NCBI GenBank assembly: GCA_903930225.1
Contig: CAIYXV010000017.1
Location: 1 to 52,246, forward strand
Length of the DNA stretch: 52,246 bases
Source of the DNA: an uncultured bacterium
GTDB lineage: Bacteria; Margulisbacteria; WOR-1; XYC2-FULL-46-14; WPAF01
Reading direction: 5' to 3'
The notes under the pieces are model-generated. The model saw nothing but the letters and a program-made list of their open reading frames with translations. It ran no database searches and was not told the origin of the DNA. Made by a program: the position numbers and the translations under genes. Position 1 is the first letter of the stretch. Each line of letters begins with the position of its first letter. Shown in pieces: positions 20,529 to 52,246 of the stretch.

Positions 20529-20589
20529 GGGGGTGGGAAGATAACGTTTGTCAGGTTTTCTATCACTTTTATTTGGAAAGGAGATGAAT

Positions 20590-21084: not shown

Positions 21085-21106
21085 CGGTAAATAAAGGAGA
21101 ATTAAA

Positions 21107-21709: not shown

Positions 21710-21742
21710 CTGTAATTTAATTATTTTTAGGGAGGCGGTCCA

Positions 21743-28767: not shown

Positions 28768-28774
28768 AAAATCA

Positions 28775-28803
28775 TTGAGCGGACAGCCGATACATGATAA
28801 AAT
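28775..28803 (+). promoter_or_regulatory. sigma70-like promoter for split transketolase, possibly leaderless
   Basis: TTGAGC (28775-28780), 17-nt spacer, TAAAAT (28798-28803), with an extended -10 TGa at 28795-28797. The GTG start at 28810 lies only 6 nt downstream, with no SD. Confidence 0.4.
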
Positions 28804-28809
28804 CAGTCC

Positions 28810-30617: not shown

Positions 30618-31060
30618 GCGCCCAAAGACCTTCGTGGAACGAATATTTCATGCGCATCACCAATGATGTCGCGGAGCGGGCGATCTGCGTTAAGCGCAAG
30701 GTCGGCGCGGCGATCGTCAAGGACAACCACATTCTTTCCACCGGTTACAACGGAGCTCCTAAGGGATTTTCCCACTGCACCGAGGACACCTGCATCCGAA
30801 AACAGATGAGCGTTCCTTCCGGACAGAGGCATGAGCTGTGCCGCGGCCTGCACGCGGAGCAGAACGCGATCATCCAGGCCGCCGTGCAAGGGGTCAAGAT
30901 CGAAGGCGCGACTTTATATTGCACTTATCAACCCTGCGTGATCTGTGTTAAAATGATGATCAACGCGGGGATAAAAAAGCTGGTTTACGCGGGCGGCTAT
31001 CCGGATGACCTGGCCGCGGAAATGCTGAAAGAAAGCAATATAGAGGTGGTAAAGTTATGA
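30614..31060 (+). CDS. dCMP deaminase (ComEB-type)
   Basis: The start at 30614 forms an ATGA overlap with the upstream gene. SWNEYFM, HAEQNAI and PCVICVKMM are the zinc-binding motifs. Confidence 0.85.
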
Positions 31061-31920
31061 AAGTCGGTTATCTCGGTCCGGAAGGCACCTTTTCCGAAGA
31101 TGCGGGCAAGCTTTACCGCGGCATGATCAAGGCCAATTTCGAACTGGTCCCGTATCCCACGTTCCATGACGTTATTCTCGCGGTCGAGAAAAAAGCGATC
31201 GATGAAGCGCTGGTCCCGATAGAAAATTCGATCGAAGGCACGATCAGCACCGTGACCGACATGCTAGCCAGGGACGTTGACCTGAAAATAAACCGGGAGC
31301 TGGTAATGCCGGTCTATAATTACCTGCTGGCGCAAAAAGGGATCCACATCAGCGAGATAACGGATGTGATCTCCCATCCCCAGCCGATCGAACAGTGCAA
31401 GGATTTTCTGCGCCGCCGTCTAACTTAGGCCAAGCTCCATCTTGCTTATTCGACCTCGGACGCGGCCCGCCAGGTAGCAATGTCGCTGGGGGAAAAGATC
31501 ATCTCCCACGGCAAGGTGAAAGGCCCGGTCTTTGCCGCGATCGGACCGCTTTCCATGGCCCGGCTATACGGCTTGTCGGTGATCGCCAAGAAGATCAATG
31601 CCAAGGACAACCAGACCCGGTTCGTGGTCCTGTCCCGGACCGACCATAAGCGGACCGGCGACGACAAGACCTCGATCGTTTTCTCGATCGCCAAGGACCG
31701 CCCGGGAGGACTGTACGGCATCCTTTTTGAATTCGCCAACCGGGGCATCAACTTAAGCAAGATCGAATCCCGACCGAGCAAGAAGGCGCTCGGCGATTAT
31801 TACTTTTTTGTCGACTTAAAGGGCCACCGCGACGACCGGATCGTAAAAGATGCGCTGGCGAACGTTAAAAAGAGGGCCGCCTTTTTCAAATTCCTGGGTT
31901 CGTATCCAAGATTTAAATAA
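31057..31920 (+). pseudogene. pheA: prephenate dehydratase interrupted by a single in-frame TAG (31426-31428)
   Basis: The two listed ORFs (31057..31428 and 31480..31920) share one reading frame. Across the junction the sequence reads ...CKDFLRRRLT*AKLHLAYSTSDAARQVAMSLGE.... The PDT domain is followed by an ACT domain (TSIVFSIAKDRPGGL...ESRPSKK..YYFFVD). Confidence 0.75.
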
Positions 31921-31935
31921 AATAAGGAGAGATAT

Positions 31936-32205
31936 ATGACAGTAGACCTGAACCTGATCCTGCAGTTCTGCCTGATATTGCTGATCCTGGCGCTGACGGT
32001 CGGAGCCGTGATATTTATTTTGATACTGATCGATCTCAAACAGATCACCAAGCGGGTCAACCGCGAGATCAAGGCGGTCACGTTTATTGTCGACATGCTC
32101 GACCTTATCGTTTCCGGAATGCACATGGCAAAGAAGAAATTCAGCGATTCCAACATCGGCCGCACCATAAAAAAGTCGTTAAAAATCACAAAAGAGGAGG
32201 AATAA
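31936..32205 (+). CDS. DUF948-like single-pass membrane protein
   Basis: Has an N-terminal TM helix followed by a charged helical region, with SD aaggagag upstream. The family call is tentative. Confidence 0.45.
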   Translation: MTVDLNLILQFCLILLILALTVGAVIFILILIDLKQITKRVNREIKAVTFIVDMLDLIVSGMHMAKKKFSDSNIGRTIKKSLKITKEEE

Positions 32206-32378
32206 TGATGGGCAAACTGGCAAAGACCCTTACATTGGGCGCGATCTTCGGTTTTATCGCGGGGCTTCTGTTCGCTCCGAAAAAGGGCGAGGAATCTCGC
32301 AAGACGGTCGGAGAAGTGATCGAAAAAGGCAAAGAAAAAATAAACGAGATCAAAGGTTCTTTTAAAAAGGAAGAGTAA
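32205..32378 (+). CDS. YtxH-like small membrane protein (57 aa; not in the supplied ORF track)
   Basis: The translation is MMGKLAKTLTLGAIFGFIAGLLFAPKKGEESRKTVGEVIEKGKEKINEIKGSFKKEE. The GxxxGxxxGLLFAPKxGxExR pattern is typical of YtxH. SD aagaggagg lies at 32192-32200 (aagaggagg), and an alternative ATG is at 32208. Confidence 0.55.
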   Translation: MMGKLAKTLTLGAIFGFIAGLLFAPKKGEESRKTVGEVIEKGKEKINEIKGSFKKEE

Positions 32379-32391
32379 GCGCATTTCCGTA

Positions 32392-34284
32392 ATGAAACAC
32401 ACGCTTTTGTGCGCGCTTTCCGTTTCCCTGATCATTTTTTCCTGTGCTTACGCCGACGGGACCAAGGTCGCCAACGATCCCACCCGCATCAGCGTCGGCG
32501 CTAGGGTCCTGGGCATGGGAAAATCATTCATGGGCATGGCTGATGACATCGGCTCCATATTCACCAATCCGGCCGGCCTGGCAGAGCTGAATAATCCGCA
32601 GATGACCTCCATGTCGGGCAAATTCATCAATGAGGTAAATTATCTCAATGTCGGCGGGGCGTATCCGACCTTTCTGGGTACGCTCGGGATCGGATACATA
32701 AGCTCTGATATCGCTTTTACCAGCCCGTCCGCCACAACCGAAGTATTAGATGGGGTCAGGATCATACCTTCTTCGACCGAAGGCTCCAGCTATTCGTATA
32801 AGAACAGCGCCCTGTTATTATCATTCGGCTCACCGTTGAGCTCGCTGCCATTCGATATTTTTAAAAAAGCCGATTTCGGCGGTACGGTCAAACTATTCTT
32901 CCAAAACCTGGGAGGACCGGGCATCAACGGAGGGACCGCATCGGGGTACGATATAGACCTGGGCGTAAGGTATAAACTCAATCCCGCGATCGGCTTAGGC
33001 GCGGTGGTCCAGAATGTCATTCCGTTCTCGCTGGGAGGAAAGATCCATTGGGCCAGCGGGGCGGAGGAATCCCTGCCATCGGTCCTGAAGGTCGGCATGA
33101 GTGTAAAAGTGTTGGGCGAGAACGGACTGGCCAGGTTAAAGGACAGCCAGCTTACCTTTAACCTTGACGGAGATTTTACACCCTTGCGGTCGAATATTCC
33201 GTCGCTTTTGCATACCGGGGTTGAATGGCTGCCGATCGATCTGCTCGCTTTGCGGGCGGGCATCGACCAGGATGTCATCGGTACTGGCGGGGGAGGGCTT
33301 GATGTCGCCAACAACGTAACGCTTGGCGTGGGGGTGCTGTTCAACGATTTCCGGTTCGATTACGCTTATCACCAGTATTATTCGATACCCGAAAACGATA
33401 CCAATTATTTTTCTATTTCCTATGGCATGTCAAACAAAAAACCGGTCCCGCCATTGATCAAATATCTCGATCTCGGTTTTCCCCAGGACCGGACCGTTGT
33501 TCATGCAGACCGGATAAAGGTAAGCGGATCGGCGCTCAGGCCGGAAGTAAAGCAGATCAGCATCGGAGCTTATACCGTGAACGTGAACGGAAGTTCGTTT
33601 GAAGCCGAGCTCCCGCTCACACTCGGAAAGAACAGCATTCTCGTTACCGCGCTGGACTCAAACGGCGCGGCCCTCGAATCCCAGAAGATCAGAATCTTAT
33701 GTTTGACATCTTTCAGCGATGTGACCGATGCCTACTGGGCTCAGGGACCGGTGCTTACCCTGGCGACCCTGGGAATAATTTCAGGATACGCCGACCAGAG
33801 CTTCAAGCCGGACAAGACGATCAACCGCGCGGAGATGATAACCCTGCTGGTCAGGGTATCCGGCGTAACGACCGAAGGAGTGGCTCTCAAGCTTCCTTTC
33901 AAGGATGTTTCAAAAAAGTTCTGGGCGGCTAAATATATTGGGACAGGCATCAAGCTCGGCTTTATGACCGGCTATCCGGATAAAACCTTCAAACCGTTAA
34001 GATCGATCATACGCGCTGAAGGGGTTGTGACCCTGGCCAGGTTCTCGGGCCTGGATCTGACCCAGCCGGTGCCGGCGCCGGTGTTCGCGGACGTGCCCGG
34101 AAGACACTGGGCGGCAAAAGCGGTCAATGCCGCCAATTCCGCCGGGATGCTGAAATATTTGTCCGGACAGCGTTTTGAACCGAACCGACAGCTGACCCGG
34201 GGCGAAGTGGCGGAGATGCTGTCGAAATCGGATATTGTTTCCCAGAAAGTAGCCGAGCTTTTAGACTGGGAGAAAGGCTACTGA
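32392..34284 (+). CDS. PorV/FadL-like outer-membrane barrel fused to an Ig-like linker and three C-terminal SLH domains (paralog B)
   Basis: Has a signal peptide. The barrel opens with ISVGARVLGMGKSFMGMADDIGSIFTNPAGLA and ends FRFDYAYHQYY..NYFSISYG. Three SLH-like units occupy about nt 33709 to the end (FSDVTDAYWA..., FKDVSKKFWAAKYI..., FADVPGRHWAAKAV...). Confidence 0.7.
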   Translation: MKHTLLCALSVSLIIFSCAYADGTKVANDPTRISVGARVLGMGKSFMGMADDIGSIFTNPAGLAELNNPQMTSMSGKFINEVNYLNVGGAYPTFLGTLGIGYISSDIAFTSPSATTEVLDGVRIIPSSTEGSSYSYKNSALLLSFGSPLSSLPFDIFKKADFGGTVKLFFQNLGGPGINGGTASGYDIDLGVRYKLNPAIGLGAVVQNVIPFSLGGKIHWASGAEESLPSVLKVGMSVKVLGENGLARLKDSQLTFNLDGDFTPLRSNIPSLLHTGVEWLPIDLLALRAGIDQDVIGTGGGGLDVANNVTLGVGVLFNDFRFDYAYHQYYSIPENDTNYFSISYGMSNKKPVPPLIKYLDLGFPQDRTVVHADRIKVSGSALRPEVKQISIGAYTVNVNGSSFEAELPLTLGKNSILVTALDSNGAALESQKIRILCLTSFSDVTDAYWAQGPVLTLATLGIISGYADQSFKPDKTINRAEMITLLVRVSGVTTEGVALKLPFKDVSKKFWAAKYIGTGIKLGFMTGYPDKTFKPLRSIIRAEGVVTLARFSGLDLTQPVPAPVFADVPGRHWAAKAVNAANSAGMLKYLSGQRFEPNRQLTRGEVAEMLSKSDIVSQKVAELLDWEKGY

Positions 34285-34287
34285 TGA

Positions 34288-35880
34288 ATGAAAGAAGAAA
34301 TAAAAAAGCTTGTTGAATCGACCGTAGCGGACGTATATGGGCAAACCGTGCGCTCCGTTACCGGCGCTCCTAACCCTAAATACGGCGATTTTTCTAGCAA
34401 CGCCGCGCTCCTGCTCGATCCTGTAATAAACGAACCGTTGTTTGAGATCGCCTCGAAGCTCGCGGCCGCGATATTCGTCCGGGACGCCGGCCGCACGTTC
34501 AAAAAGGTTGAGGCGACCCGGACCGGGTTCATTAATTTCCGGCTTGATGAAAGTTATCTCCAGCGTCAGGTGGCGTTGATCAGGGAAGAAAAGGACCGCT
34601 ATGGAAGAAAGAAAGAAAAGAACGGCAAAAGGGTATTGATCGAATTCGTGTCCGCCAATCCCACCGGGCCGCTTCATATCGGCCACGGCCGCTGGGCGGT
34701 GATCGGCGACGATATCGCAAGCTTACTGGAAGCTTCCGGTTATGAGGTAGAACGAGAATTCTATATAAACGACGTCGGCAACCAGATCGAGAAACTTATA
34801 AATTCAGTTAAAGCCCGGGCGGAGGGCGGGGAGGTCCCGGAGGGGGGATACAGCGGAGCGTATATTCAGGACCTGGCGGATGAGCTCAAGGCCGATATTT
34901 CAAAACCTGAATTCAGAAACATCCTGATCGGCACCATCCTTGAATGGCAGAAAAGGGTGCTGCGCGAACTGAGCATCGAGTTCGACCGTTTCTTTTCCGA
35001 AAGGACCCTTCACGAAAAAGGCAAGGTAGCGGAAACCATCGAAAAGATGAAAAAGACCGGCCACACTTTCGTTGAGGACGGCGCCTTGTGGTTCAAGTCC
35101 CAGGATCACGGAGACGACAAGAACCGCGTCCTGGTCAGGGAGAACGGGGAGCCGACCTATTTTACCGCCGACATCGCTTACCACCTTGATAAATTCAGCC
35201 GCGGCTACGATCAGCTGATCGACGTCTGGGGAGCCGATCATCACGGTTATGTCCCGAGATTAAAAGCCGCGCTTAAAGTCCTGGGCCTGCCCGTCGACCA
35301 CTTCGAAGTAATAATCGGCCAACTGGTCTCGCTTTTCCGCGGATCGGAGCCGGTCAAGATGTCAAAAAGGACCGGCGACATGATCACGCTAGAGGAAGTG
35401 GTGCAGGAGATCGGAAAGGACGCCACCCGTTTTTTCCTGACCATGGTCTCTTCGCAAAACCGGCTTGAATTCGACCTTGAGCTGGCCAAGAAGCACGCGT
35501 CCGACAATCCGGTGTATTACGTGCAGTACGCCCACGCGCGGATCTGCAGTATTTTCAGGGAAGCGGAAGAGAGAGGGGTAGAATTTAACGGGAACTGCGA
35601 CCTTTCAAAGCTTATCCATCCGGCCGAAAGAGATTTAATGAGGAAGCTGATCGATCTGGGGGATGAGATCGTTTCCGCCGCCGAGAAAAGAACGCCGCAC
35701 CAGATGGTCGAGTACGCAAAAAGCCTGGCCGCGATCTATCATAATTATTATCATAAATGCCGGGTCATATCGGACGACATCGACCTGACCCGGGCGCGCC
35801 TGGCGCTGGCCGACGCCACTCGAACTATCCTAAAAAATGTGCTAATATTGCTTAAGGTTGAAGCGCCGGAGAGGATGTAG
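34288..35880 (+). CDS. argS: arginine--tRNA ligase
   Basis: Class I motifs NPTGPLHIGHGR (HIGH) and KMSKRTG, plus a DALR-type anticodon-binding C-terminus. Confidence 0.95.
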   Translation: MKEEIKKLVESTVADVYGQTVRSVTGAPNPKYGDFSSNAALLLDPVINEPLFEIASKLAAAIFVRDAGRTFKKVEATRTGFINFRLDESYLQRQVALIREEKDRYGRKKEKNGKRVLIEFVSANPTGPLHIGHGRWAVIGDDIASLLEASGYEVEREFYINDVGNQIEKLINSVKARAEGGEVPEGGYSGAYIQDLADELKADISKPEFRNILIGTILEWQKRVLRELSIEFDRFFSERTLHEKGKVAETIEKMKKTGHTFVEDGALWFKSQDHGDDKNRVLVRENGEPTYFTADIAYHLDKFSRGYDQLIDVWGADHHGYVPRLKAALKVLGLPVDHFEVIIGQLVSLFRGSEPVKMSKRTGDMITLEEVVQEIGKDATRFFLTMVSSQNRLEFDLELAKKHASDNPVYYVQYAHARICSIFREAEERGVEFNGNCDLSKLIHPAERDLMRKLIDLGDEIVSAAEKRTPHQMVEYAKSLAAIYHNYYHKCRVISDDIDLTRARLALADATRTILKNVLILLKVEAPERM

Positions 35881-35886
35881 AATTTT

Positions 35887-36801
35887 ATGAAATACGCTTA
35901 TTTTAAAGGAAAGATCGTCCCGTTCAAGGAAGCCAACATATCGATCATGAACCACGCCTTCAATTACGGCACCGGCGTTTTCGAAGGCATCCGCGGCTAC
36001 TGGAACCAGGATAAAAAGCAGATGTTCGTCGTCAAGCTTAAGGATCATTTTGACCGGCTGCAAAGGTCCGCTTCGCTCGCCCTCAAATCGTCGCTCAGGC
36101 AAACCAGCGATGAACTAGCCGACATCACCGTGGAACTTTTAAAAAAGAACGGCTACCGGGAGGATGTTTATATCCGTCCGATATTTTATAAATCGGAAGA
36201 GAAGATTGGGCTGGGATTGCTGGGCATCAAGGATGATTTCTGCATGTACGTGTCTCCGTTCGGCGAATACCTTAATATTTCAAAGGGCATAAAAGTCTGC
36301 GTGTCTTCCTGGTGGAGGATCTCGGCGCAGTCCGTGCCGCAGGGAGCCAAGATCACCGGCACTTACATCAATTCTTCGCTGGCCAAGGCCGAAGCGCTGG
36401 AAAGAGGCTTTGATGAAGCCATTCTTTTGTCCCATGAAAGGACCGTGGCCGAAGGATCGGGCGAGAACCTTTTTATAATCAAGGACGGTAAATTATTGAC
36501 CCCGCCGCTTTCGGAAACTATCCTGCCGGGCATAACCCGGGTATGCGTGATGGATCTGGCCGGCCAGGAACTGGGCATAAAAACCACTGAACGCCAGGTC
36601 GCGCAAAATGAGCTCTACTCCGCCGACGAATTATTCTTCTGCGGCACCGGAGCGCAGATCACGCCGATCGTCAACGTGGACAATACCGACATTAAAGACG
36701 GAAAGGTCGGCCCGATCACCAAAAAGCTCCAGGAAATATACTTTAGCGCCGTCCACGGGGAAACCGCCAGATACTCCGATTGGCTTACGCCCGTTTACTG
36801 A
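35887..36801 (+). CDS. ilvE: branched-chain amino acid aminotransferase (class IV)
   Basis: FEGIRGY, the KITGTYINS region, and GSGENLF. Confidence 0.9.
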   Translation: MKYAYFKGKIVPFKEANISIMNHAFNYGTGVFEGIRGYWNQDKKQMFVVKLKDHFDRLQRSASLALKSSLRQTSDELADITVELLKKNGYREDVYIRPIFYKSEEKIGLGLLGIKDDFCMYVSPFGEYLNISKGIKVCVSSWWRISAQSVPQGAKITGTYINSSLAKAEALERGFDEAILLSHERTVAEGSGENLFIIKDGKLLTPPLSETILPGITRVCVMDLAGQELGIKTTERQVAQNELYSADELFFCGTGAQITPIVNVDNTDIKDGKVGPITKKLQEIYFSAVHGETARYSDWLTPVY

Positions 36802-37151
36802 TGATCTCCGGGATCGGTGTGGATATCATTGAGATCGACCGGGTCAAGGCCGCGGTAAAAGCCCATGGAAAGAAATTTTTAAACCGCATTTTCACCGAGC
36901 GCGAGCTTGAATACTGCACCAACCGCAGGGTGTACCGCTTCCCCGAGCTGGCGGCGCGCTTTGCCGCCAAAGAAGCGTATTCCAAGGCGATCGGCACCGG
37001 CATCGTCGGCATCAAGTTCCGGGAGATCGAAGTAATAAATGACCGGAGCGGCCGGCCGCGGATCTATGTCCTCGGCAAAGTGCTGAAGAAAGTGCATCTT
37101 TCCCTTTCTCATTCCAAAAATTATGCGGTGGCATCGGTTGTGGCAGAGTGA
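36801..37151 (+). CDS. acpS: holo-[acyl-carrier-protein] synthase
   Basis: The start at 36801 gives MISGIGVDIIEIDRV. FAAKEAYSKA and SLSHS are also present. Confidence 0.9.
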   Translation: MISGIGVDIIEIDRVKAAVKAHGKKFLNRIFTERELEYCTNRRVYRFPELAARFAAKEAYSKAIGTGIVGIKFREIEVINDRSGRPRIYVLGKVLKKVHLSLSHSKNYAVASVVAE

Positions 37152-37164
37152 TATCATTACTGGC

Positions 37165-37992
37165 ATGAAGCCAAAAAAGCTTTTTCCAAAGAGAAAACCC
37201 GATACCCACAAGGGAGATTACGGAAAGGTCTTTATTCTGGCCGGATCAGTTGGCATGCTGGGCGCCGCGATCCTGGCGAGCCGGGCGGCGCTTAGGGGAG
37301 GGGCAGGGATCGTTTATCTCGGCGTTCCCAGGTCCTCAAGAGATATCGTGAATATAGCCACTCCGGAAATTATCGTTCTGGGGGGAGATTCGGCCTCTGA
37401 TTTTTTTGATCTCGCGCGGGGGGCCGACGCAATCGCCGCAGGCCCGGGGCTTGGAGCGAGAGGAAAGATAGCGAAGGAATTGCTGGCCCGCCTCGGCCGG
37501 GCAAAATACGACCGGCCGATAGTTCTTGACGCCGACGGCCTGACCGCTTTCGAAAATGACTTAACTTCGCTTGGCAGACTGCGCCTTAATCTTATATTGA
37601 CCCCTCATCCCGGAGAAATGGGAAAATTATTCGGAAAGACCGCCGAACAAGTGCAGGTGAGCCGTTCGGATTTTGCCGCGAACCTTTCCAAACAAACCGG
37701 CGGCGTTACGGTCCTTAAAGGGCATAACACGGTCATCTCCGACCGGTCCGGAAAGACTTTTACTAATAGATCCGGGAATCCCGGGATGGCGACCGCCGGA
37801 ACGGGGGATGTTCTTACCGGCCTGATCGCAAGCTTCGCCGCCCAAGGATTTGAGCCGATCGATGCCGCGCGGACGGGCGTTTTCGTGCACGGCCTGGCCG
37901 GCGATCTGGCTGGATCAGACCTTGGAGAAATTGGAATGATCGCTTCCGACATTATCAAACAGATACCGAAAGCGATAAAAAAGGTCCAATAA
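37165..37992 (+). CDS. nnrD: ADP-dependent NAD(P)H-hydrate dehydratase (YjeF C-terminal type)
   Basis: The start at 37165 is followed by HKGDYGKV. ILTPHPGE and GTGDVLTG are also present. Confidence 0.85.
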   Translation: MKPKKLFPKRKPDTHKGDYGKVFILAGSVGMLGAAILASRAALRGGAGIVYLGVPRSSRDIVNIATPEIIVLGGDSASDFFDLARGADAIAAGPGLGARGKIAKELLARLGRAKYDRPIVLDADGLTAFENDLTSLGRLRLNLILTPHPGEMGKLFGKTAEQVQVSRSDFAANLSKQTGGVTVLKGHNTVISDRSGKTFTNRSGNPGMATAGTGDVLTGLIASFAAQGFEPIDAARTGVFVHGLAGDLAGSDLGEIGMIASDIIKQIPKAIKKVQ

Positions 37993-37993
37993 A

Positions 37994-38788
37994 ATGCAAA
38001 AAAGAATAGATAAGACGATCGTCGCGTTCGAACAATTGGGACACGTTACCATCGAGTTCATCGAGGAGACCGGCCGCATCATGCAGCTGGCGCTGACCAC
38101 CGTCGCCTGGATATTTTCCGGGAAAGTGAACCTGCGGCTGGTGCTGGACCAGATGGTAAAAGTAGGCGTCGACTCGCTGCCGATCGCCCTGACCTCGGCC
38201 GCTTTTGTGGGCATGGTCTTTGCCGTGCAGATCGCTACCGAATTCGTTAAGTTCGGCGCCAGCAAATACGTGGGAGGCGTAATGGGGATCGCGGTGGCCA
38301 GAGAGCTGGCCCCGGCGCTGACCGGCATCGTTATTTCCAGCCGGGTTTCGGCCGCGATCGCCGCGGAGATCGGCACCATGAAAGTGACCGAGCAGATCGA
38401 CGCCCTGAACGCGATGGGGAGCAGTCCGATCAGTTACCTTGTCATTCCCCGATTCATCGCCTGCACGCTGATGCTGCCTCTGCTTACCATTCTTTCCGAT
38501 ATTTTTTGCTTTATAGGCGGCTATGTAGTATCGGTGTACTTGATAAAGATAAACGCGGTCGATTACATCAATTCCGCCCAGCAGATGGTTAAATTCAACG
38601 ATATTTACGGCGGGATATTCAAATCATTTATTTTCGGCATGATAATCTCGGTGATCGCCTGCAACAAGGGATTGCGGGCGCAGGGCGGGGCCAAAGGGGT
38701 GGGGGAGGCAACGACCAGTTCCGTGGTCGCTTCCCTGATCGCTCTTTTTATAACCAATTATTTCCTTTCGGTGCTGTTATTCAAATGA
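37994..38788 (+). CDS. mlaE: MlaE-family ABC permease
   Basis: 264-aa polytopic permease with the ARELAPALTGI...AAEIGTMKVTEQIDAL pattern. Confidence 0.85.
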   Translation: MQKRIDKTIVAFEQLGHVTIEFIEETGRIMQLALTTVAWIFSGKVNLRLVLDQMVKVGVDSLPIALTSAAFVGMVFAVQIATEFVKFGASKYVGGVMGIAVARELAPALTGIVISSRVSAAIAAEIGTMKVTEQIDALNAMGSSPISYLVIPRFIACTLMLPLLTILSDIFCFIGGYVVSVYLIKINAVDYINSAQQMVKFNDIYGGIFKSFIFGMIISVIACNKGLRAQGGAKGVGEATTSSVVASLIALFITNYFLSVLLFK

Positions 38789-39516
38789 TAAAAATAGTTG
38801 ATCTGTCAAAAGCGTTCAATCATCTGGTCGTTCTGGACCGGGTCACGCTCGACATCCCGGACGGCGAGACCCTGGCCGTGATCGGACCTTCCGGCTGCGG
38901 CAAATCCACGCTCCTGCGGCTTATTCTGGGACTGGAAACGATCGATTTCGGACAGATCCTGGTTGACGGTCAGGATGTCGGCAAACTGAACGAAGAGGGA
39001 CTGATCAAATTGAGGCAGAAGATCGGCATGGTCTTTCAGTCGAGCGCGCTGTTCGATTCGCTTAGCGTGTTCGAAAACGTGGCTTTTCCATTGCGGGAGC
39101 ATACCGATCTCGATGACGGGGAGATCAAAGATATCGTGGAAAACAAACTGGCCATGGTTGAACTTTACGGCAAGGGCGAGATCATGCCTTCGGAGCTTTC
39201 CGGCGGCATGCAAAAAAGGGTTTCGATCGCGCGGGCGCTCGCATTCGATCCTAAGATCATACTCTACGATGAGCCTACCACGGGCCTCGACCCGATAACT
39301 TCCAGCACCATCGAGGCTCTGATAAACAAGCTGGCCGGCGACCTTAAGGTCATATCGATCGTCGTGACCCATCAATTAAGCACCATATTCCGGACCGCGC
39401 ATAAGATCATAATGCTGGATAATGGCAAATTCATTGTCGGCGGGACGGTCGAGCAGGTAAAAAGATCCCAGGATCCGGTAATTTCCCGGTTCATTAACGC
39501 TGGAATTACGCTATAA
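38785..39516 (+). CDS. mlaF: MlaF-family ABC ATP-binding protein
   Basis: GPSGCGKST, LSGGMQKRVSIARAL, ILYDEPTTGLDP. Confidence 0.85.
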   Translation: MIKIVDLSKAFNHLVVLDRVTLDIPDGETLAVIGPSGCGKSTLLRLILGLETIDFGQILVDGQDVGKLNEEGLIKLRQKIGMVFQSSALFDSLSVFENVAFPLREHTDLDDGEIKDIVENKLAMVELYGKGEIMPSELSGGMQKRVSIARALAFDPKIILYDEPTTGLDPITSSTIEALINKLAGDLKVISIVVTHQLSTIFRTAHKIIMLDNGKFIVGGTVEQVKRSQDPVISRFINAGITL

Positions 39517-39536
39517 TATTATAGAAGGGGTAAAAG

Positions 39537-40643
39537 ATGAAATTATCCACTGCGGCCAAAGTTGGGATACTGACGCTTATCGGAGCGATCGCGCTGGCAG
39601 CCATGATCAGCTGGAAGAGCAACTTTTTCCTGCTCCGCGAAGGGATAGAGATCATCGGCTCCTTCCCCAATATCGAAGGCTTGACGGTTGGCTCCGAGGT
39701 CAGGTATCGGGGCTTCAGCGTTGGCAAAGTTATGCGCATCGATGCCGGACCGCAGGATATAAAAATTTACGCGACGGTCAGTAAAGACGTAAAGATACCG
39801 ATGGATTCTTCCCTGCGTGTCGGTTTTGACGGCATTGTCGGCCTCAAATACCTTGAGATCAGGCCGGGGACCTCGGAAGTGCAATATACCGCCGGCACGG
39901 AAATGCCCGGCATCAGCACTGCCGGACTGGTCGACTTCGTAGATATCGGGACCAAGAACCTGGCAGAGACCAAGGCGATTCTTGAAACGTTCCGTAAAAT
40001 GGTGGAAAACTCTAAATTACAAGATGCGATCTCGGGAACCGTGTATAAGACGGAAGAGATAGCCGATAATATAAATAAACTCACCAATGAGCTAAGGACC
40101 ACTAATAAGGGAATAAAGGACATAACCTCCGATCAAAAATTCCAGGAGAACGTCAAAGGAACGATCGCGCAAACAAACACTACTTTGACCTCGGCCAATA
40201 AGTTCTTTGAATCTTTCGGCAAGTTGAATGTTAGGACCAGCGGGGACATAAGCTATGGTTCGGCGGCCAATCAGGTAAGGGGTAATCTTGATATCGTGCA
40301 GAGTGAAAAAGACTTTTTAAGGCTCGGGCTGGGGGAGGGCCCCACGCGCGATCTGGCGCTGCAGGATATCTTGGTCTCGCGAAAAGCGACTGATACCCTC
40401 GGCATGAAGCTGGGAATGATCAATTCCAGACTGGGCGGAGGTCTGGATCTCTATATGTCTCCCGATTGGACTGTAAGCGGCGACCTGTATGATATCAATA
40501 ATCCAAAGCCGAATGTGCCTAAATTCAGGTTTACCAGCTATAATAGCGTAACCTATTATATGGACCTTATGCTGCAGGCCGATGATATGTTCAATTCCGC
40601 CAGAAATTATTCATTTGGGATAAGAGTTAAGGGCGGACGGTAA
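39537..40643 (+). CDS. mlaD: MlaD/MCE-domain protein with a long C-terminal extension
   Basis: Has an N-terminal TM anchor and an MCE domain (GLTVGSEVRYRGFSVGKV). About 230 further residues include helical and beta-rich parts. Confidence 0.75.
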   Translation: MKLSTAAKVGILTLIGAIALAAMISWKSNFFLLREGIEIIGSFPNIEGLTVGSEVRYRGFSVGKVMRIDAGPQDIKIYATVSKDVKIPMDSSLRVGFDGIVGLKYLEIRPGTSEVQYTAGTEMPGISTAGLVDFVDIGTKNLAETKAILETFRKMVENSKLQDAISGTVYKTEEIADNINKLTNELRTTNKGIKDITSDQKFQENVKGTIAQTNTTLTSANKFFESFGKLNVRTSGDISYGSAANQVRGNLDIVQSEKDFLRLGLGEGPTRDLALQDILVSRKATDTLGMKLGMINSRLGGGLDLYMSPDWTVSGDLYDINNPKPNVPKFRFTSYNSVTYYMDLMLQADDMFNSARNYSFGIRVKGGR

Positions 40644-42633: not shown

Positions 42634-43323
42634 TCATTTCCCGTTCTGGAGATAATTCCTTAGGGATTTTCTGGTGTTCAGGTCCATTTTTTGCGAAGCG
42701 CCTTCCTGCGTGGCGGTTGAATTTACTTCCGTTGCGGTATTGCTCGTGCCGCTCTCAGCTGCAACACGGCTGCTCTGGCGGAAATTCAGGAGCGATCTGC
42801 CGATGTTAAGATCGATCTCTCTTACCGTGCCTTTATCCTGGATCGCGTTGTTTGTGAATTTAAGCGTAAAAATAAAATCGAATGCGGGGTAATCGGCCGA
42901 GATCCCCCAATATTGTCCCTTGTAATTGGTCGCTTCCGCCAGAATATAATTTCCGCCGGTCGCGTCGATAAAATTTATCGCCTGCGACGGCATGAAGTTA
43001 AAGTTCCCCATATGATAATTCAATTTTATGGAATTATATAGAAGCAGCGACGCAATCAGCCCGAACCGGGTGGCATTTATGGTCGCGGAATAATTAATAT
43101 CGGACATGATCTGTTCGACCTCGAGGCCGGCCCCGAAATCGCCCAGCGGAACCAGCGCGTTGATGCCGATATTCAGTCCGTTGCCGATGCCGTTAACGAT
43201 GCCGATATGAAAATCAGAATTCAACGGGATAAAGCTTATCGAAGGCAGATTTTCAACTTTCATGGCGAACGCCGCGGTTGAAGCAGCTAATACAATAAAA
43301 ACAGCAAAGACAATCTTTTTCAT
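42634..43323 (-). CDS. secreted hypothetical protein, beta-rich with a polar low-complexity tail
   Basis: Signal peptide MKKIVFAVFIVLAASTAAFA. No family recognised. Its composition resembles that of the adjacent GH5 gene. Confidence 0.5.
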   Translation of the reverse strand: MKKIVFAVFIVLAASTAAFAMKVENLPSISFIPLNSDFHIGIVNGIGNGLNIGINALVPLGDFGAGLEVEQIMSDINYSATINATRFGLIASLLLYNSIKLNYHMGNFNFMPSQAINFIDATGGNYILAEATNYKGQYWGISADYPAFDFIFTLKFTNNAIQDKGTVREIDLNIGRSLLNFRQSSRVAAESGTSNTATEVNSTATQEGASQKMDLNTRKSLRNYLQNGK

Positions 43324-46285: not shown

Positions 46286-47179
46286 CTAAAGTACATCTTT
46301 ACCGGTAAGCCGTCTGAACGCTTCCATGTATTTGTCCCTTGTCTTTTTTACCACCTCCTCGGGCAGTTTTGGAGCCGGCGGCTCCTTATCCCATTTGATG
46401 GAAACCAGATAATCTCTCACGAACTGCTTATCAAAACTAAACTGCGCCCCGCCCGGTTTGTACGTGTCTTTTGGCCAGAAACGCGAAGAATCGGGCGTTA
46501 ATATCTCATCTATTAGGATGATATGGTTATCATAGAACCCAAATTCAAATTTGGTATCAGCGATAATAATGCCTTTTTTGTCGGCGTAGTCGGCGGCCGC
46601 CTTATAAATGGCGATCGTCTTTTCTTTGACGAACTTGGCGGTATCGGCCCCGACCAGATCAACAACTTCGCGCTCGGTTATCGGCAGGTCATGGCCTGAT
46701 TCCGCCTTGGTCGTCGGCGTAAAGATAGGCGCAGGAAGTTTGTCTGATTCTTTGAGGCCGGAAGGAAGCTTGACCCCGCAGATCGAACCGGTCTTCTGGT
46801 ATTCCGACCAGCCCGAACCGGAAAGGTATCCCCTGACCACGCATTCAACCGGTATCACTTTGGCCTTTTTGCCGATCATGGACCGTTTTTCCAGCAGGGC
46901 TCCCTGCTTTTTGAGGTTTTCAGGATAGCGGCTGACATCAGCGGTCAATAAATGGTTCTCAATTATGTTTTTGGTAAAATCGAACCAAAAAAGCGAGATC
47001 TGGGTCAAAATTTTGCCTTTGTCGGGAATGCCGTTGGGCATGATGGAGTCAAAAGCGGAGACGCGGTCGGTGGCGACGATCAGCAGGCGGTCGCCCAGGT
47101 CATAGATCTCCCTGACCTTTCCGCTTTTTGGCTTGGGGAATCCGGGAAGCGCGACGGTTAAAACAGCTTCTTCAACCAT
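46286..47179 (-). CDS. purC: phosphoribosylaminoimidazole-succinocarboxamide synthase (long form)
   Basis: [31 protein letters not shown]. Confidence 0.9.
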
Positions 47180-47919
47180 TCCGTGCGCATTATACCATGC
47201 TTAATGAGGGTAAGCCAAAGGAATTTAGGCAGGGCCGCCTGCCTTTTTATCCGCCAGGGTTCCATTATCAGGCGGTAAAGCCATTCGATATAGAGGGCCT
47301 GGATCCAGGCCGGCGCGCGCTGTTTTGTCCCGGAGATCACGTCCATACTGCCCCCCACCCCCACGCAGGCCGGTACGTTAAGCTCATTTAAGTTATTAGC
47401 CAGCCACTTTTCCTGCCTTATCATACCCAGCCCAGCAAAAAGAATATCGGGATAAACGCCGCGGATGCCGCTCACAACCGAGGTTTCCTCAACTTTACTG
47501 AAATATCCGTCACGCGCTCCCACGATCTGAAGCTCCGGGTACTGTAATCTCAGCTTTCTGGCCGCTTCATTGGCTACGCCTTTGGCTCCACCCAGCAGGT
47601 ATACCCGGTAGCCCTTGGCCGAGGCCAGCGCCATCGCTTTTTGCATAAAATCGACGCCGGAGACCCTTTCCCGCAATGGCCTCATTAAGATCCTTGATAC
47701 CACGACCATCGAGATGCCGTCCGGCAGTCTTAAGTGGGAATTGTTCAGGATATTGCGCAGTTCCTCATCAACTTGTGCCGAAACGATGATCTCCGGATTG
47801 GGGGTGACGATAAGATGAGGAGACCTTTCCATGATGAATCCGTTCAATCTGGCGATCGCCTCATCCATGGTGACATCGTCGATCTTTATTCCCGCCAGTT
47901 CAATGAACGTCATCTTCAC
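47158..47919 (-). CDS. tagA: WecB/TagA/CpsF-family glycosyltransferase (ManNAc-transferase type)
   Basis: [26 protein letters not shown] and GVGGSMD follow the TagA/WecG pattern. The start overlaps the stop of the SLH-barrel gene by 4 nt. Confidence 0.8.
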
Positions 47920-49889
47920 TTTCCGAACAGCTGGTCTATCCTATTACTAATAAAGCCGACATTGTTCAATATATCGACCACTTCGATCCTGGTTATCATC
48001 CGATTGGGTTCGAAATTTTGTCCTTTTAAATATTCAAGCATCATGGCTTTTTTGGCCGCAGCAATCGCCTTTAGCGCCCAATGCTTCAAGCCAACGTCAG
48101 GAAAAGGTTTCTCATATACAGATGAAGAGACATCAAGACCGGCGTAGCTGGCTATGATTTGCACCGCCTCCGCGCGCGTTACGCCTCTTCCCGGCACAAA
48201 CCCGCCGTTGGGATAGCCTTTGACCAATTTTTGTTCGACCGCCTGGGCGATATAATTCGCGGCCCAGTGGCTGGCCGGAACATCTTTGAAAATCGATCTG
48301 GTAGTGGGAGCTTTTTCCGAGGGTTTAATCTTCATTACCAGCGTGCACATTTCAGCGCGGGTAATATTACCTTCAGGCTTAAAAGTGCCGTCTTTGAAAC
48401 CGGTCACATAGCCAAGCGCCGCCATGGCGCCCACGCTGATGCGCAAAGGATGCTTTTCCGGAACGTCTGGAAAGCTTGGAAGCCGGACAGCGGTCAAATA
48501 CTTTTTCTCGACGATCCTTCCGGTAGGTCCGAACAGGATGATCTCGGTTTTATTTCTTCCCAGATCGGGAAGGTCCGCAACCGAAAGGAAAGTGTTGTCC
48601 GGATAAAGATTCGCGGGCTTGCCGTTCACCTTTAGATCTTTTGCATTTTTTACATCCAGCACTTGTCCCTCGATCATCACGTAGGGGGTAAAAAATATTT
48701 CGTTATCCCGCGGCGATTTGATCGTCAAGTATTCTTTGAGCGGCGCGACCGCGGGGAACGGTTCCTGTTTTACCGGACCGTAAGACAGCGAAAAGAAATG
48801 CGTGTTGTTTGCTGAAAGATCGCCGAAGGTGTGGAAAGCATAATCAAATCTGAATCCGGCGAAATTAAGGCCGATGCCGGCCGACAAATTGTTAACTATT
48901 CCTACGTTTCCCGCCCCGGTTGCAGCCGGGTCCTGGTCCAGCCCCAGCCTCAGCGCGAATCTGTCCCAGCCCAGCCATTCTATTCCAAGATGGCCGAGTC
49001 CGGGCCGGTTGTTCGTAAAAAATAATTCACTGTCATAGCTCAGCGTCAGTTCCTGGGGCGCGAACCTGATCTCGCTCAGTCCGTTCTTTCCCAGTATTTT
49101 CAATGCGGTCCCGACTTTGCAGGAAGCGGGGATCGATTCGGTGATGCCCGATCCCCAGGAAAGCGCCCCCCCCAGGCTGTATGGGAGCGCGTTAAAAACG
49201 GTGGCTCCGAATTTTAACCAGGGCTGGGCTTGATACTGCGCGCCAAAATCCATGTCATGGCCGGAAGCGCCGACATCGCCGGAGGGCGTGCCGGTCAGCG
49301 ATTGGTTGAAAATCTTCAAACTGGCGCCCAGGCTGACATCTTTTAGGAAAGGGAACTTAAAATATTTTATCGGTGATACCGCGTAAGAAAAAAACAGGAC
49401 GGAACTGTCATAGCCGATCGCTCCCCCGATTGGAACGACGCGCTGGGTGGCCGGATCTCTTCCTGATATCAAGCTCCCGCCTACGGATGCCTTGACGTAT
49501 CCTGCGCCGACCGCTTCATTGCTCAAGGGATAGACACCGGTCAATAAATTGTAATCCACCTCTTCGATCAGCTTGGAATACATGCTGGTAAACTGCCAGT
49601 CGCGCATCCCGCTCATGCCGGCGGGATTCTGGATAACGGAATTTGCGTCATCCGCCGCCGCGACATAAGCCCTCCCCATTCCCAGGGGTCTGGCCCCGGT
49701 CGCCAGTTCAGAAGGATCGATCGTGGCCTTGAAGGGAGCGGTGCATTCTGCGGGCAGGACAAAGAGGGCCAGTCCGCTACTGGTGATCCAAAATAGCAGG
49801 CTTAACCGTACCAAAAACTTTTTGACCGACCGTGATCTTTGCAATATAAATACCGTTTCCGAGAACTTCTCTAAAATCAGAAATACCAT
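47916..49889 (-). CDS. PorV/FadL-like outer-membrane barrel fused to an Ig-like linker and three C-terminal SLH domains (paralog C)
   Basis: The barrel opens with LATGARPLGMGRAYVAAADDANSVIQNPAGM and ends FRFDYAFHTF..THFFSLSYG. The SLH-like units are FPDVPEKHPL..., FKDVPASHWAANYI... and FPDVGLKHWALKAI... (about nt 47916-48480). The true start is probably an internal TTG at 49844 or 49814, either of which yields a normal signal peptide. Confidence 0.7.
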   Translation of the reverse strand: MVFLILEKFSETVFILQRSRSVKKFLVRLSLLFWITSSGLALFVLPAECTAPFKATIDPSELATGARPLGMGRAYVAAADDANSVIQNPAGMSGMRDWQFTSMYSKLIEEVDYNLLTGVYPLSNEAVGAGYVKASVGGSLISGRDPATQRVVPIGGAIGYDSSVLFFSYAVSPIKYFKFPFLKDVSLGASLKIFNQSLTGTPSGDVGASGHDMDFGAQYQAQPWLKFGATVFNALPYSLGGALSWGSGITESIPASCKVGTALKILGKNGLSEIRFAPQELTLSYDSELFFTNNRPGLGHLGIEWLGWDRFALRLGLDQDPAATGAGNVGIVNNLSAGIGLNFAGFRFDYAFHTFGDLSANNTHFFSLSYGPVKQEPFPAVAPLKEYLTIKSPRDNEIFFTPYVMIEGQVLDVKNAKDLKVNGKPANLYPDNTFLSVADLPDLGRNKTEIILFGPTGRIVEKKYLTAVRLPSFPDVPEKHPLRISVGAMAALGYVTGFKDGTFKPEGNITRAEMCTLVMKIKPSEKAPTTRSIFKDVPASHWAANYIAQAVEQKLVKGYPNGGFVPGRGVTRAEAVQIIASYAGLDVSSSVYEKPFPDVGLKHWALKAIAAAKKAMMLEYLKGQNFEPNRMITRIEVVDILNNVGFISNRIDQLFGK

Positions 49890-51036
49890 TCCAGATTATT
49901 TCATTATACCCCGCTTTGCCGCCCTCTTCAAACGCTAAATAACTTCTTTTCCAGACGGTGGCGCCTCTGATATCAAAAATATAAATCGTAATATTGCAGT
50001 CGGTAGTCAGCGTATAGGCAATGGACGTCTTTTGTCCGCTTAAAGGTGAAAATGGGTTTGGGAAATTGACCGGCGGGCCGATCATTCGCTGGTCATCTGC
50101 TGAAAAGACATACAAAGGTGCAATAACCTCGTTGACGAGGTTGCCCGACTTGTCCCCGGCGATTATTTTAAAAGTATAAGTGCCCGGATCCAGAGGAGGA
50201 GTCAAATCAAGCTCAAAATCTCCCGTGTCTATATTGTAGTAAGCGCCTTTCCAGTCGGCCGCAGTCCCCTGGTATTTGAGGGAATCGTTTATCCAGATCT
50301 CGATCTTATCGACGTTTCTGGGTATATCATCAATTATGTTCGCACTGACTTTAAGATGAGAGGATACGATGTCGTTCGGGAATCGCTTGCGATCGTTCAA
50401 CATAAGCTTTGAAATGGTGGGAGGGGTTACATCCGGGTTGATCAGCTTTGCCTGGACCAATGATGAATCGGAATCAGGCCCGCCGTAAAACACGCCGTTG
50501 GCGCCATAATATCCGCTGCCGTCGTTTACCTGGTCCAAAACCTTAAGCGTGGTGTATCCGGTCTCGGTCGTAACCGCAAACTGGGGAGCGGTCAGCGCCA
50601 GAAATAATTTGTAGGTTGCGTCTTCCGACAATGGGATACTGGACGGGACCGGGGTATTCTCTGTAGGATCATATATGCCGTTTGCGTTATCATCCTTGAT
50701 CAGAGTTGAGCTCCATTTATCTTTGGTCCCGGAAAGTTCAAAACTGTAAATATCGGAGCCATTTCCGACATTGGTCAGGGTGAAGGGAAAGTAGTAGGTT
50801 TGATTTGGTGAAACGGTTCCCATTACTTCCGGGGTGATAAGCGTCATCCCGTGGTCCTGTGAAACCGTAAATGAGAGAGGGTTTGAATAACCGATATTGG
50901 TATCGCTCCTGACCTCGGCGCTGGGCACGGTTATGCCGGTGCCCGCTACCGTTCCAACCGCAAAAGCCGCCAAAGAAGTGAATAGCAAATAAAATAAAGT
51001 AAGAACAAGCGAAGTGCAGAAGCTATGTTTGGACAT
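49777..51036 (-). CDS. secreted surface protein with CARDB/DUF11-like and Ig-like domains and a YPNPF-type C-terminal domain
   Basis: Has a signal peptide. The FTLTNVGNGSDIYSFELSG motif is present. The C-terminus VNFPNPFSPLSGQKT...GGKAGYNEIIWNG...GNGIYIAKI is alignable with that of 8783-9616. Confidence 0.7.
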   Translation of the reverse strand: MSKHSFCTSLVLTLFYLLFTSLAAFAVGTVAGTGITVPSAEVRSDTNIGYSNPLSFTVSQDHGMTLITPEVMGTVSPNQTYYFPFTLTNVGNGSDIYSFELSGTKDKWSSTLIKDDNANGIYDPTENTPVPSSIPLSEDATYKLFLALTAPQFAVTTETGYTTLKVLDQVNDGSGYYGANGVFYGGPDSDSSLVQAKLINPDVTPPTISKLMLNDRKRFPNDIVSSHLKVSANIIDDIPRNVDKIEIWINDSLKYQGTAADWKGAYYNIDTGDFELDLTPPLDPGTYTFKIIAGDKSGNLVNEVIAPLYVFSADDQRMIGPPVNFPNPFSPLSGQKTSIAYTLTTDCNITIYIFDIRGATVWKRSYLAFEEGGKAGYNEIIWNGISDFREVLGNGIYIAKITVGQKVFGTVKPAILDHQ

Positions 51037-51060
51037 TAAATTACTCTTAATTTACTAAGA

Positions 51061-52215
51061 TCAGCGTACCGTAGCGCCCCAGGTAATGGTCTTGGGGAAG
51101 CCGCCGGTGACCGGCACATTGGCTTTTTCCCATTTCACCCATTTTGCATTCCAGGGAGCATCCGGGGTCGGATAACCATTATAGGTTGAACTAGCCGATG
51201 GGAACCCGGTCGTAACCGCATCTATGGTCCCGACAAATGTCCAGCCGGAAGGAGCCTGATAAGATTTGTCCGGGCTGTCAAGCGTCGAGTAAAAAACCGT
51301 CCAGTTTATGTCAGTTTCCCGCGATGCCGTAATAATGACGTTGGTAGTTGAGCCGGTCGCATTAAAATGGGCGAGATTGGTCTTGTCCGGTACCTTGTCA
51401 ACTATAACGGCGCTGTTCGCGGCGTCGCCGGTAAGCGTATAAGATAAAGTATAAGTGATGATCGAGCCGGGAACAGTGTCGTGGGTGCCGCCGGTATAGC
51501 CGACCGGATTTGAAATTTTGGGAGCATCCACGACCGAGGAGCGGGTCAAAGTTAACAGCGGCTTGACGATCGTATAAGTCGAATTATTCGACCAGTTGGC
51601 GGGTCCTCCATAGGTTAAGCCGTTGGCGCCGGTATACTGACCAACCGGCGTACTGGCAGTAGTGGCAGTAGAAGTGATCACAATATAAGCTGTCGGGCTG
51701 CCATTGGCCGGGGCGGTCACTTGGTGATAGAAACCATAATCAGCGTCTTCTGCCACCGTCTTAACTTCGGAAGTCGTGTTATTTCCCGGGGTCAATGTTC
51801 CGACCAATGAGTTATCGGAAGATCTTCGGATATTAACCGTCCAGGCGCCGGCTCCGGCATTGGCAAAATTACAGCTGAAGCCAATGGTGTAGTTATCGGA
51901 AGCGTTGCCTTCATTCGTGACCGCGGCGGAGTTGGTGATGGTCTGTGCGACATACAGGTTCCTGCTGCCGAAGCCGCCGGCGGAAAAGCCGTATTCCGGA
52001 AGGACCGTCACCGCGATATTTGAGGGAGGAGTGACCTGCGGTTTTGGGTTGCTGTTTATATCCGTGTAATCTAAAGTTTCCTGGGTCGCAAACGCGGTGA
52101 TCACTTCGCCTGATGCGGTATCTCCGGGATTGCCGGTGGATATAAAAGTCACGGCCTTCGCCTCGGGCGCAAGTCCAAACATCAAAATCCCAATTACAAA
52201 ACAAACTCCAAACAA
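51061..52215 (-). CDS. secreted surface protein with CARDB/DUF11-like repeats (5' end may lie beyond the window)
   Basis: The hydrophobic N-terminus ends APEAKA. VTNEGNASDNYTIGFS and GANGLTYGGP are paralogous to motifs in the 49777-51036 product. The listed start is TTG, and the frame stays open to the window edge. Confidence 0.6.
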   Translation of the reverse strand: MFGVCFVIGILMFGLAPEAKAVTFISTGNPGDTASGEVITAFATQETLDYTDINSNPKPQVTPPSNIAVTVLPEYGFSAGGFGSRNLYVAQTITNSAAVTNEGNASDNYTIGFSCNFANAGAGAWTVNIRRSSDNSLVGTLTPGNNTTSEVKTVAEDADYGFYHQVTAPANGSPTAYIVITSTATTASTPVGQYTGANGLTYGGPANWSNNSTYTIVKPLLTLTRSSVVDAPKISNPVGYTGGTHDTVPGSIITYTLSYTLTGDAANSAVIVDKVPDKTNLAHFNATGSTTNVIITASRETDINWTVFYSTLDSPDKSYQAPSGWTFVGTIDAVTTGFPSASSTYNGYPTPDAPWNAKWVKWEKANVPVTGGFPKTITWGATVR

Positions 52216-52246
52216 TATATTTCGGATTCCTGCCTGCCGGCAGGCA

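Follow-up and report, generated by a model that had tools for sequence, protein, structure and literature searches.

The closest described counterparts of the genes considered here belong to two separate kinds of system. In Porphyromonas gingivalis's type IX secretion system (T9SS), PorU and PorZ retain their C-terminal domains (CTDs) and sit on the outer-membrane barrels PorV and PorQ. PorV acts as a carrier rather than as a channel, and substrate CTDs bind its extracellular loops (PMC10994853); for substrates with a type B CTD, a genetic link to cognate PorP/SprF shuttles has been found (PMC12618676). The T9SS is, by the literature, confined to Bacteroidota or to the Fibrobacteres-Chlorobi-Bacteroidetes (FCB) superphylum (PMC11205867, PMC10994853, PMC5445135). 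The other kind comprises proteins with S-layer homology (SLH) domains plus a barrel, the outer-membrane tether of Terrabacteria, which has been detected in Margulisbacteria and Saganbacteria (bioRxiv 10.1101/2021.05.31.446380). The present study analyzes a minus-strand operon at 47916–52215 of a 52,246-nucleotide stretch of contig CAIYXV010000017.1 (the whole stretch is called the window below) from a Candidatus Margulisbacteria bacterium, in which a secreted protein with a T9SS-type CTD is encoded just upstream of a PorV-like barrel carrying three SLH domains, the barrel-SLH protein. Margulisbacteria are a sister group of Cyanobacteria. Both known kinds come together in this system, which joins SLH-barrel tethers with cognate pairs of the CTD/PorV family and does so in a phylum from which no such pairing and no T9SS had been described; the papers searched showed no link between Margulisbacteria and the T9SS, and none of them named both "PorV" and "S-layer homology". 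On balance, the patterns detected favor a reading in which the barrel-SLH protein serves as an outer-membrane anchor, tied to the wall, for the CTD of its upstream-encoded neighbor; PorV-CTD binding, PorU-PorV, PorZ-PorQ and the type B CTD/PorP pairs are the precedents. We lean, to a similar degree, towards regarding the region as the distal end of a cell-surface operon encoding Sec-exported surface proteins and a dedicated outer-membrane partner.

Three envelope genes run head to tail on the minus strand, as an earlier note on this DNA had described, and all of them, with the motifs it listed, are present in the list of open reading frames (ORFs). The first visible in the window encodes a 384-aa secreted protein without a CTD (51061–52215, from the longest-ORF list). 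The second encodes a 419-aa secreted protein (49777–51036) made up of a signal peptide, a shared N-terminal domain, an immunoglobulin (Ig)-like domain at about aa 205–310 and the C-terminal sorting or anchoring domain (aa 320–419; 49780–50079), and the third is the barrel-SLH gene (47916–49889, 657 aa as the longest ORF). The overlap of 38–113 nt claimed between the barrel and CTD genes depends on the start that is used: ATG 49889, TTG 49844 and TTG 49814 give 113, 68 and 38 nt, and the last of these, which yields 632 aa, is the start in public gene calls (P0001, 632 aa, 100% identical). Exact look-up of the 419-aa protein returned no record. Overlapping reading frames would favor co-expression of the CTD protein and the barrel at matched amounts. 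A sigma-70-like site (TTGAAG-17-TATAAT, 49931–49903, minus strand, 10/12 matches) falls inside the CTD gene at its 3′ end, 14 nt before the barrel ATG. A promoter and terminator scan of the region gave counts near those of shuffled sequence, and the site is not evidence.

The 384-aa protein has a signal-peptide-like N-terminus, judged by eye, and no match in Pfam or NCBIfam. It had been called a paralog of the 419-aa protein, and this holds for one domain of about 130 aa (residues 99–238 against residues 87–223 of the 419-aa protein; 27% identity, E 6e-7) and not for the remainder, which is unalignable. Because its ORF is open, with no in-frame stop, up to the window end, and because the ortholog in the related locus L088 has 405 aa, about 10–20 N-terminal residues of the protein may lie beyond the window. 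The operon itself runs on past this point, which the earlier note did not see. The public contigs that carry the locus (window 52215–52246; L001, L086 and L088) all stop at the 5′ end of the 384-aa gene, and at L088:2722–5087 a further tandem paralog (383 aa, CTD-less) lies just upstream of the 384-aa ortholog; before it come a DUF11-like protein and a protein that carries a pair of discoidin (F5/8 type C) domains. Contigs ending at the same gene, together with the tandem paralog of L088, suggest that a tandem repeat probably breaks assemblies here and that the operon is probably longer than the window shows.

Profiles and fold both support the claim that the 419-aa protein ends in a T9SS-type CTD. 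It passes TIGR04183 with 26.1 bits at aa 325–407 of 419 (cut-off 23; 27.1 bits for the isolated CTD), it carries the motifs NFPNPFSP, GGKAGYNE and GNGIY at the extreme C-terminus, and its residues 200–405 match the Ig and CTD region of the PorU model (NF033707, E 8e-13). In the AlphaFold model residues 201–419 form two beta-sandwiches with a predicted local distance difference test score (pLDDT) around 90, the second of them at residues 320–416 (pLDDT around 80–95), and residues 1–200 are unreliable; the top PDB match of the C-terminal half in a fold search was PorU 6za2 (E 3e-11). A CTD profile was built from the window and related loci, and 36 CTDs from that set were tested at a threshold of E ≤ 0.01. 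TIGR04183 was matched by 18 of them, FlgD_ig by 17, the PorU CTD region by 16, PorZ by 11, PF18962 by 8 and, weakly, CHU_C by 5. A word-index homology search with the Ig and CTD half of the 419-aa protein returned only 5 proteins and gives no view of PorU-like enzymes, and none of the loci examined showed the catalytic (C25) domain of PorU. An identity as FlgD, the JGI name for P0123, was rejected: these proteins have Sec signal peptides, their lengths go as high as 3,300 aa, and the domain stays at their extreme C-terminus.

The barrel is nearly invisible to Pfam, which finds in the barrel-SLH protein only the three SLH domains (47925–48443; PF00395 E 4e-31, 107 bits, cut-off 20.8) and weak matches to Glucodextran_B and Toluene_X. 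NF033709 (PorV/PorQ family, PorV_fam) matches residues 62–370 with 79.8 bits, or 83.2 bits for the barrel alone, and all 19 of the 19 family barrels tested match it at E ≤ 1e-3 (best E 4.7e-30). An AlphaFold2 model from a 64-sequence alignment (mean pLDDT 88; residue numbering of the 632-aa form) begins with a signal peptide and a hatch, which are followed by fourteen strands (74–345), then an Ig-like sandwich (363–444) and finally three SLH domains (458–630). The hatch and the FadL/PorV-type barrel are encoded at 48777–49718, and invariant DP...G.R..G.G...NPAG motifs mark the hatch segment. Foldseek against the PDB placed 8gl6_F first (E 4e-12, TMt 0.66) and 6h3i_F second (E 2e-10, TMt 0.70 normalized to PorV), both of them PorV, as chains from the SprA translocon and RemA-CTD-bound complex structures; TbuX, TodX and FadL followed. 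The description of the barrel as PorV-like is thus supported, with PorV ahead of FadL and TodX among the folds. Like the FadL, TodX and TbuX channels, the barrel has 14 strands, an N-terminal hatch and the conserved NPA(G) motif; unlike them it has wall-binding extensions, CTD-protein neighbors and no gene link to fatty-acid or aromatic catabolism, and its fold scores with them are lower than with PorV. The linker (48483–48728) is a Glucodextranase-B-like Ig domain, predicted to be periplasmic, with a match to PF09136 below the cut-off (E 1e-4) and a beta-sandwich in the model; PF09136 also matches in 22 of 80 relatives. The SLH part, with the motifs TRAE, TRAE and TRIE read from the translation, found the Sap SLH structure 3pyw and SpaA-SLH, including complexes with pyruvylated ManNAc. 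Since 14 is an even number of strands and puts both barrel ends in the periplasm, the Ig and SLH domains are predicted from the model to face the periplasm and the wall. The window encodes an LptC/LptA-like protein, MlaDEF and a mur/fts cluster, and the first two of these indicate a diderm cell.

The pair resembles PorU-PorV and PorZ-PorQ, in which a CTD beta-sandwich protein goes with a 14-strand PorV/PorQ-type barrel at the cell surface and the CTD is uncleaved; the best matches of the CTDs here are the CTD regions of PorU and PorZ, and that of the barrel is PorV. It differs from them in belonging to another superphylum, in the periplasmic SLH domains of the barrel, in having its partners encoded in tandem, in failing the equivalog cut-offs, and in its cargoes, which are adhesin- or fiber-like and not a sortase or a lipopolysaccharide carrier; in addition, SprA, PorK, PorL, PorM and PorN were not seen in the window or flanks. 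An alternative explanation could be that this is ordinary T9SS cargo and a PorV/PorQ-type shuttle, adjacent by chance, with a complete and possibly divergent T9SS (SprA/Sov, PorK/L/M/N, PorU, PorZ) elsewhere in the genome. This would account for a CTD that passes the type A model, for PorV as the top structural relative of the barrel, for the name "PorV/PorQ family protein" that NCBI already gives to SLH-less relatives, and for the 20 of 45 CTD genes that are orphans, as is expected with a general machine. It would not account for the pairing of cargo and carrier genes, Bacteroidota type A cargo not being encoded one-to-one with its carrier, or for barrels that fall far under the PorV and PorQ equivalog cut-offs. 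The earlier note had seen no other T9SS component, and T9SS core genes turned up neither in the window (52 kb) nor in the flanks annotated for about 160 related loci. The literature cited above restricts the T9SS to Bacteroidota or FCB. We consider this explanation very unlikely.

The arrangement recurs within the window, as had been claimed for 8783–10560 on the plus strand. There a 277-aa secreted protein with a related CTD (8783–9616) is followed, with a 4-nt overlap, by a 315-aa PorV-like barrel without a wall-binding extension (9613–10560); identity is 41% over 83 aa between the CTDs (E 1e-18) and 34% between the barrels (E 7e-47). This second barrel exceeds the NF033709 cut-off of 90 with 105.1 bits. 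The 277-aa protein remains below both cut-offs, with 21.6 bits for FlgD_ig and 14.9 bits for TIGR04183. Directly upstream of the CTD gene is a 1031-aa collagen-like fiber protein (5593–8688, plus strand; collagen repeats E 7e-14) whose N-terminus weakly resembles Bdello_MAT_N, the N-domain of the Bdellovibrio "mosaic adhesive trimer" fiber (39.6 bits, cut-off 60); this fiber may be a partner of the CTD adaptor. The related locus L085 is parallel, with a 3293-aa giant protein, a 275-aa CTD protein that is the ortholog of the 277-aa protein in the same position, and a barrel, here with SLH domains.

Cargo gene followed by its own small outer-membrane barrel, which is seen twice in the window, is also the order of the type B CTD and PorP/SprF pairs such as SprB-SprF of Flavobacterium johnsoniae (PMC12618676), and the likeness extends to several pairs per genome, some orphan cargoes, and giant adhesins among the cargoes. 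In contrast to type B, however, the CTD here is type A/FlgD-like, with weak CHU_C matches in 5/36 and no TIGR04131 match, and the barrel is PorV/FadL-like and not PorP/SprF (PF11751 E 0.023 on the 315-aa barrel; 3/80 relatives), is fused to wall-binding domains, and occurs in a phylum without a known T9SS.

The earlier note had proposed a self-contained cargo/barrel surface-display unit. As a secretion-and-display unit, the barrel itself, perhaps with the beta-barrel assembly machinery, would translocate and retain its neighbor in a two-partner or autotransporter manner. Tight gene coupling with overlapping frames, the conserved cargo-then-barrel order and the lack of other secretion genes nearby would fit such a unit, and FadL-type barrels such as FadL and TodX are known to open laterally. 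We nevertheless regard it as highly improbable. With only 14 strands and a conserved hatch that fills the lumen, the barrel is an unlikely conduit for proteins of 400–3300 aa, and cargoes, which contain folded domains of the Ig, collagen and beta-helix types, reach 2,000–3,300 aa. The barrel is also without POTRA or TpsB-like features, many barrels of the family are solo, and the closest relative of the barrel, PorV, works as a carrier instead of a channel (PMC10994853).

Conservation of the pairing was assessed from both sides. The barrel alignment yielded 312 relatives in GTDB representative genomes, and the best 80 of the 312 loci were analyzed with our own ORF calls and hidden Markov models; a barrel was counted as paired if a same-strand gene with a C-terminal CTD ended upstream of the barrel domain at a distance of no more than about 150 nt. 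The CTD-centered sample was drawn from metagenome contigs and comprised close CTD genes whose downstream sequence reached 1.5 kb or more. Because smaller and less diverse alignments were used, the locus samples are biased towards the motifs FDYA[YF]H, GAR.LGM, GGKAGYN and NGIY. A CTD gene lies directly upstream of 31/82 judgeable barrels in the GTDB representative genomes, with an upstream relative of the cargo family lacking a detected CTD at several more, and a barrel lies directly downstream of 25 of the 45 CTD genes in the metagenome contigs, with another CTD gene next in four more. Adjacency is far above chance, and the co-occurrence of CTD genes with PorV-like genes suggested by the earlier note holds in related genomes, with the order kept. 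On the barrel tree the pairing is clustered but labile, with 18 Fitch parsimony changes against a shuffled mean of 37.5 and minimum of 30 (500 shuffles). In L086 and L088 there is a trio like that of the 384-aa, 419-aa and barrel-SLH proteins, the first two proteins being 47% and 53% identical, and in L003 a 2,669-aa protein with a C-terminal CTD of the same type abuts a 49%-identical barrel-SLH gene. Named barrel-SLH homologs are all from Candidatus Margulisiibacteriota, Margulisbacteria, WOR-1 or Saganbacteria. One relative labeled Omnitrophota (L015) is syntenic with window positions 22454–39925 (17.5 kb) at 75% nucleotide identity; it and L071 (DATJPS01, "Candidatus Omnitrophota" metagenome-assembled genome SMAG_U14919) both carry Margulisbacteria-type barrel-SLH genes, and it looks as if the phylum label of SMAG_U14919 is wrong or the bin is mixed.

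Neighbors of the paired loci were considered as parts of a secretion system and rejected, being housekeeping or flagellar export genes (FliR, FlhB, FlhA, Pth, Mfd). In L020, L022, L028 and L033, fliR-flhB-flhA lies directly upstream of a CTD gene and barrel-SLH pair whose CTD also matches the FlgD Ig-like domain; this may be a coincidence or a tie to the flagellum.

The adjacency could also be a matter of co-regulation only, the barrel-SLH protein acting as a wall tether, a FadL-like hydrophobic channel or both, and the CTD being a generic Ig/FlgD-like domain that does not bind the barrel. The family contains solo barrels in conserved housekeeping contexts: one group is next to ArgS-IlvE, and a second group of about 560 aa is divergent from a conserved four-gene block. 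The first includes a third barrel-SLH paralog in the window itself (32392–34284, plus strand, 630 aa, 36% identical over its full length), which has three SLH domains, was overlooked in the earlier note, has no CTD gene upstream, and is followed by ArgS and IlvE, a context shared by 12 related loci; it is probably a housekeeping outer-membrane-to-wall tether. Such solo paralogs are what co-regulation would lead one to expect, as are a barrel family fused to three kinds of wall-binding module, weak Toluene_X/FadL matches in 12 of 80 relatives as well as in the barrel-SLH protein, CTDs of which 17/36 match FlgD_ig as well as they do the T9SS models, and a window rich in envelope genes. Yet immediate same-strand and often overlapping adjacency persists in 38–56% of cases across proteins only 35–55% identical, the pairing recurs in two unrelated cargo families within the window, and physical binding is the sole known precedent for this pair of domains, CTD and PorV-type barrel. 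For these reasons we think co-regulation alone an unlikely explanation.

The barrel-SLH family is also this phylum's version of the SLH-type outer-membrane-to-wall tether, a side of the protein that the earlier note overlooked. With a profile of SLH-less barrels, the number of cluster representatives found was 49,221 when the threshold was E ≤ 1e-3 and 7,836 when it was E ≤ 1e-30, with protein lengths of 303–1,061 aa and the barrel always N-terminal. Among the top 80 representatives, wall modules were SLH in 40, LysM in 4 and SPOR in 4, the rest having no extension. Within the barrel family the wall-binding module has been swapped repeatedly. That modules of three unrelated kinds, all of them wall-binding, have repeatedly become fused to one barrel suggests that wall attachment is part of the barrel's job. 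In the definition of Witwinowski et al., OmpM combines SLH with a beta-barrel, and domain order and a PorV/FadL nature are unmentioned (bioRxiv 10.1101/2021.05.31.446380); the barrel-SLH protein has both parts of that operational definition, PF00395 exceeding its gathering score and the model showing a beta-barrel. As in OmpM/Mep45, Thermus/Deinococcus SlpA and cyanobacterial Slr1841-type proteins, an outer-membrane barrel and wall-binding SLH domains are joined in one polypeptide and, as in the tethers of Terrabacteria, there are several paralogs per genome. Unlike canonical OmpM, SlpA and Slr1841, the order is reversed, with the barrel N-terminal and three SLH domains C-terminal. Further differences from OmpM-type tethers are that the barrel here is a hatch-plugged 14-strand FadL/PorV fold and not a porin, that it also occurs with LysM, SPOR or nothing, and that a subset is genetically paired with CTD proteins.

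Taken as a wall-tethered anchor, the system might operate as follows. The SLH domains would bind pyruvylated secondary wall polymer on the peptidoglycan, and this binding would staple the barrel to the wall as an outer-membrane tether like OmpM, SlpA and Slr1841. By analogy with PorV, extracellular loops of the barrel would grip the CTD that the upstream-encoded protein retains, and this surface protein would thereby be mechanically coupled to the wall. More speculatively, the CTD-less paralogs, or the collagen-like fiber encoded upstream of the 277-aa protein, perhaps ride on the CTD protein.

Several patterns weigh against the anchor. The score of the barrel-SLH protein on NF033709 (80–83 bits) is under the cut-off of 90, and both barrels of the paired loci in the window score low on the PorV equivalog NF033710 (14.5 bits for the barrel-SLH protein and 26.7 for the 315-aa barrel, cut-off 250) and on the PorQ equivalog NF033711 (21.3 and 46.6 bits, cut-off 220). 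The barrel profile had no PorV or FadL match among PDB sequences, and the relation of the barrel to PorV is visible only through NCBIfam profiles and fold. Pairing is frequent and not obligatory, about 60% of the family barrels having no adjoining CTD gene, and it is not one-to-one, about 40% of the CTD genes having no adjoining barrel. Contact between CTD and barrel is itself a prediction from folds and gene order, and no route across the outer membrane for the cargo was identified at the loci examined. Finally, a link between the anchor and a gene for its ligand is not conserved. A WecG/TagA-family glycosyltransferase gene (47158–47919, minus strand; PF03808 E 1e-58, TarA-like NF041710 E 4e-57) overlaps the barrel-SLH stop by 4 nt, and the wall polymers to which SLH domains bind owe their ManNAc unit to TagA, but this adjacency is lineage-specific. 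TagA was rejected as a conserved partner of the barrel-SLH gene, the TagA-PurC-IspG-PurB block lying 4–8 kb from a barrel in L068 and L083.

Other features of the window lie outside the paired loci. In place of the single prephenate dehydratase gene of relatives, about 285 aa long, the window has two ORFs of 123 and 146 aa (31057–31428 and 31480–31920, plus strand); the split reflects a frameshift, pseudogene formation or an error of assembly. Three tandem small signal-peptide proteins of 178, 200 and 142 aa are encoded at 20548–22171 (plus strand) and one of 229 aa at 42634–43323 (minus strand). These glycine- and aromatic-rich proteins have no Pfam match and may be small outer-membrane beta-barrels.

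The finding joins two themes that have been separate, namely the ties between outer membrane and wall in diderm Terrabacteria and the surface holding of T9SS-style CTDs. If the barrel binds its neighbor's CTD, then CTD/PorV-type recognition exists in a sister phylum of Cyanobacteria, wired to peptidoglycan and organized as cognate pairs. A broader proposal, which we offer tentatively and hold to be possible rather than probable, is that in Margulisbacteria/Saganbacteria without a T9SS translocon the CTD/PorV-type barrel pair is a stand-alone surface-anchoring module, with dozens of diversified barrels per lineage, each fused to SLH, LysM or SPOR, serving as wall staples and as cognate docking sites for adhesins, fibers and CTD-less partners. 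If that were true, the cargo-carrier half of type IX secretion would be older than and separable from the rest, and would exist outside the FCB superphylum, and these proteins, including very large ones, would have some other export route. The observations bear on the origin of the T9SS carrier module, on the annotation of "S-layer homology domain" proteins, thousands of which have a barrel invisible to Pfam, and on how uncultured Margulisbacteria, including ectosymbionts, build adhesive surfaces.

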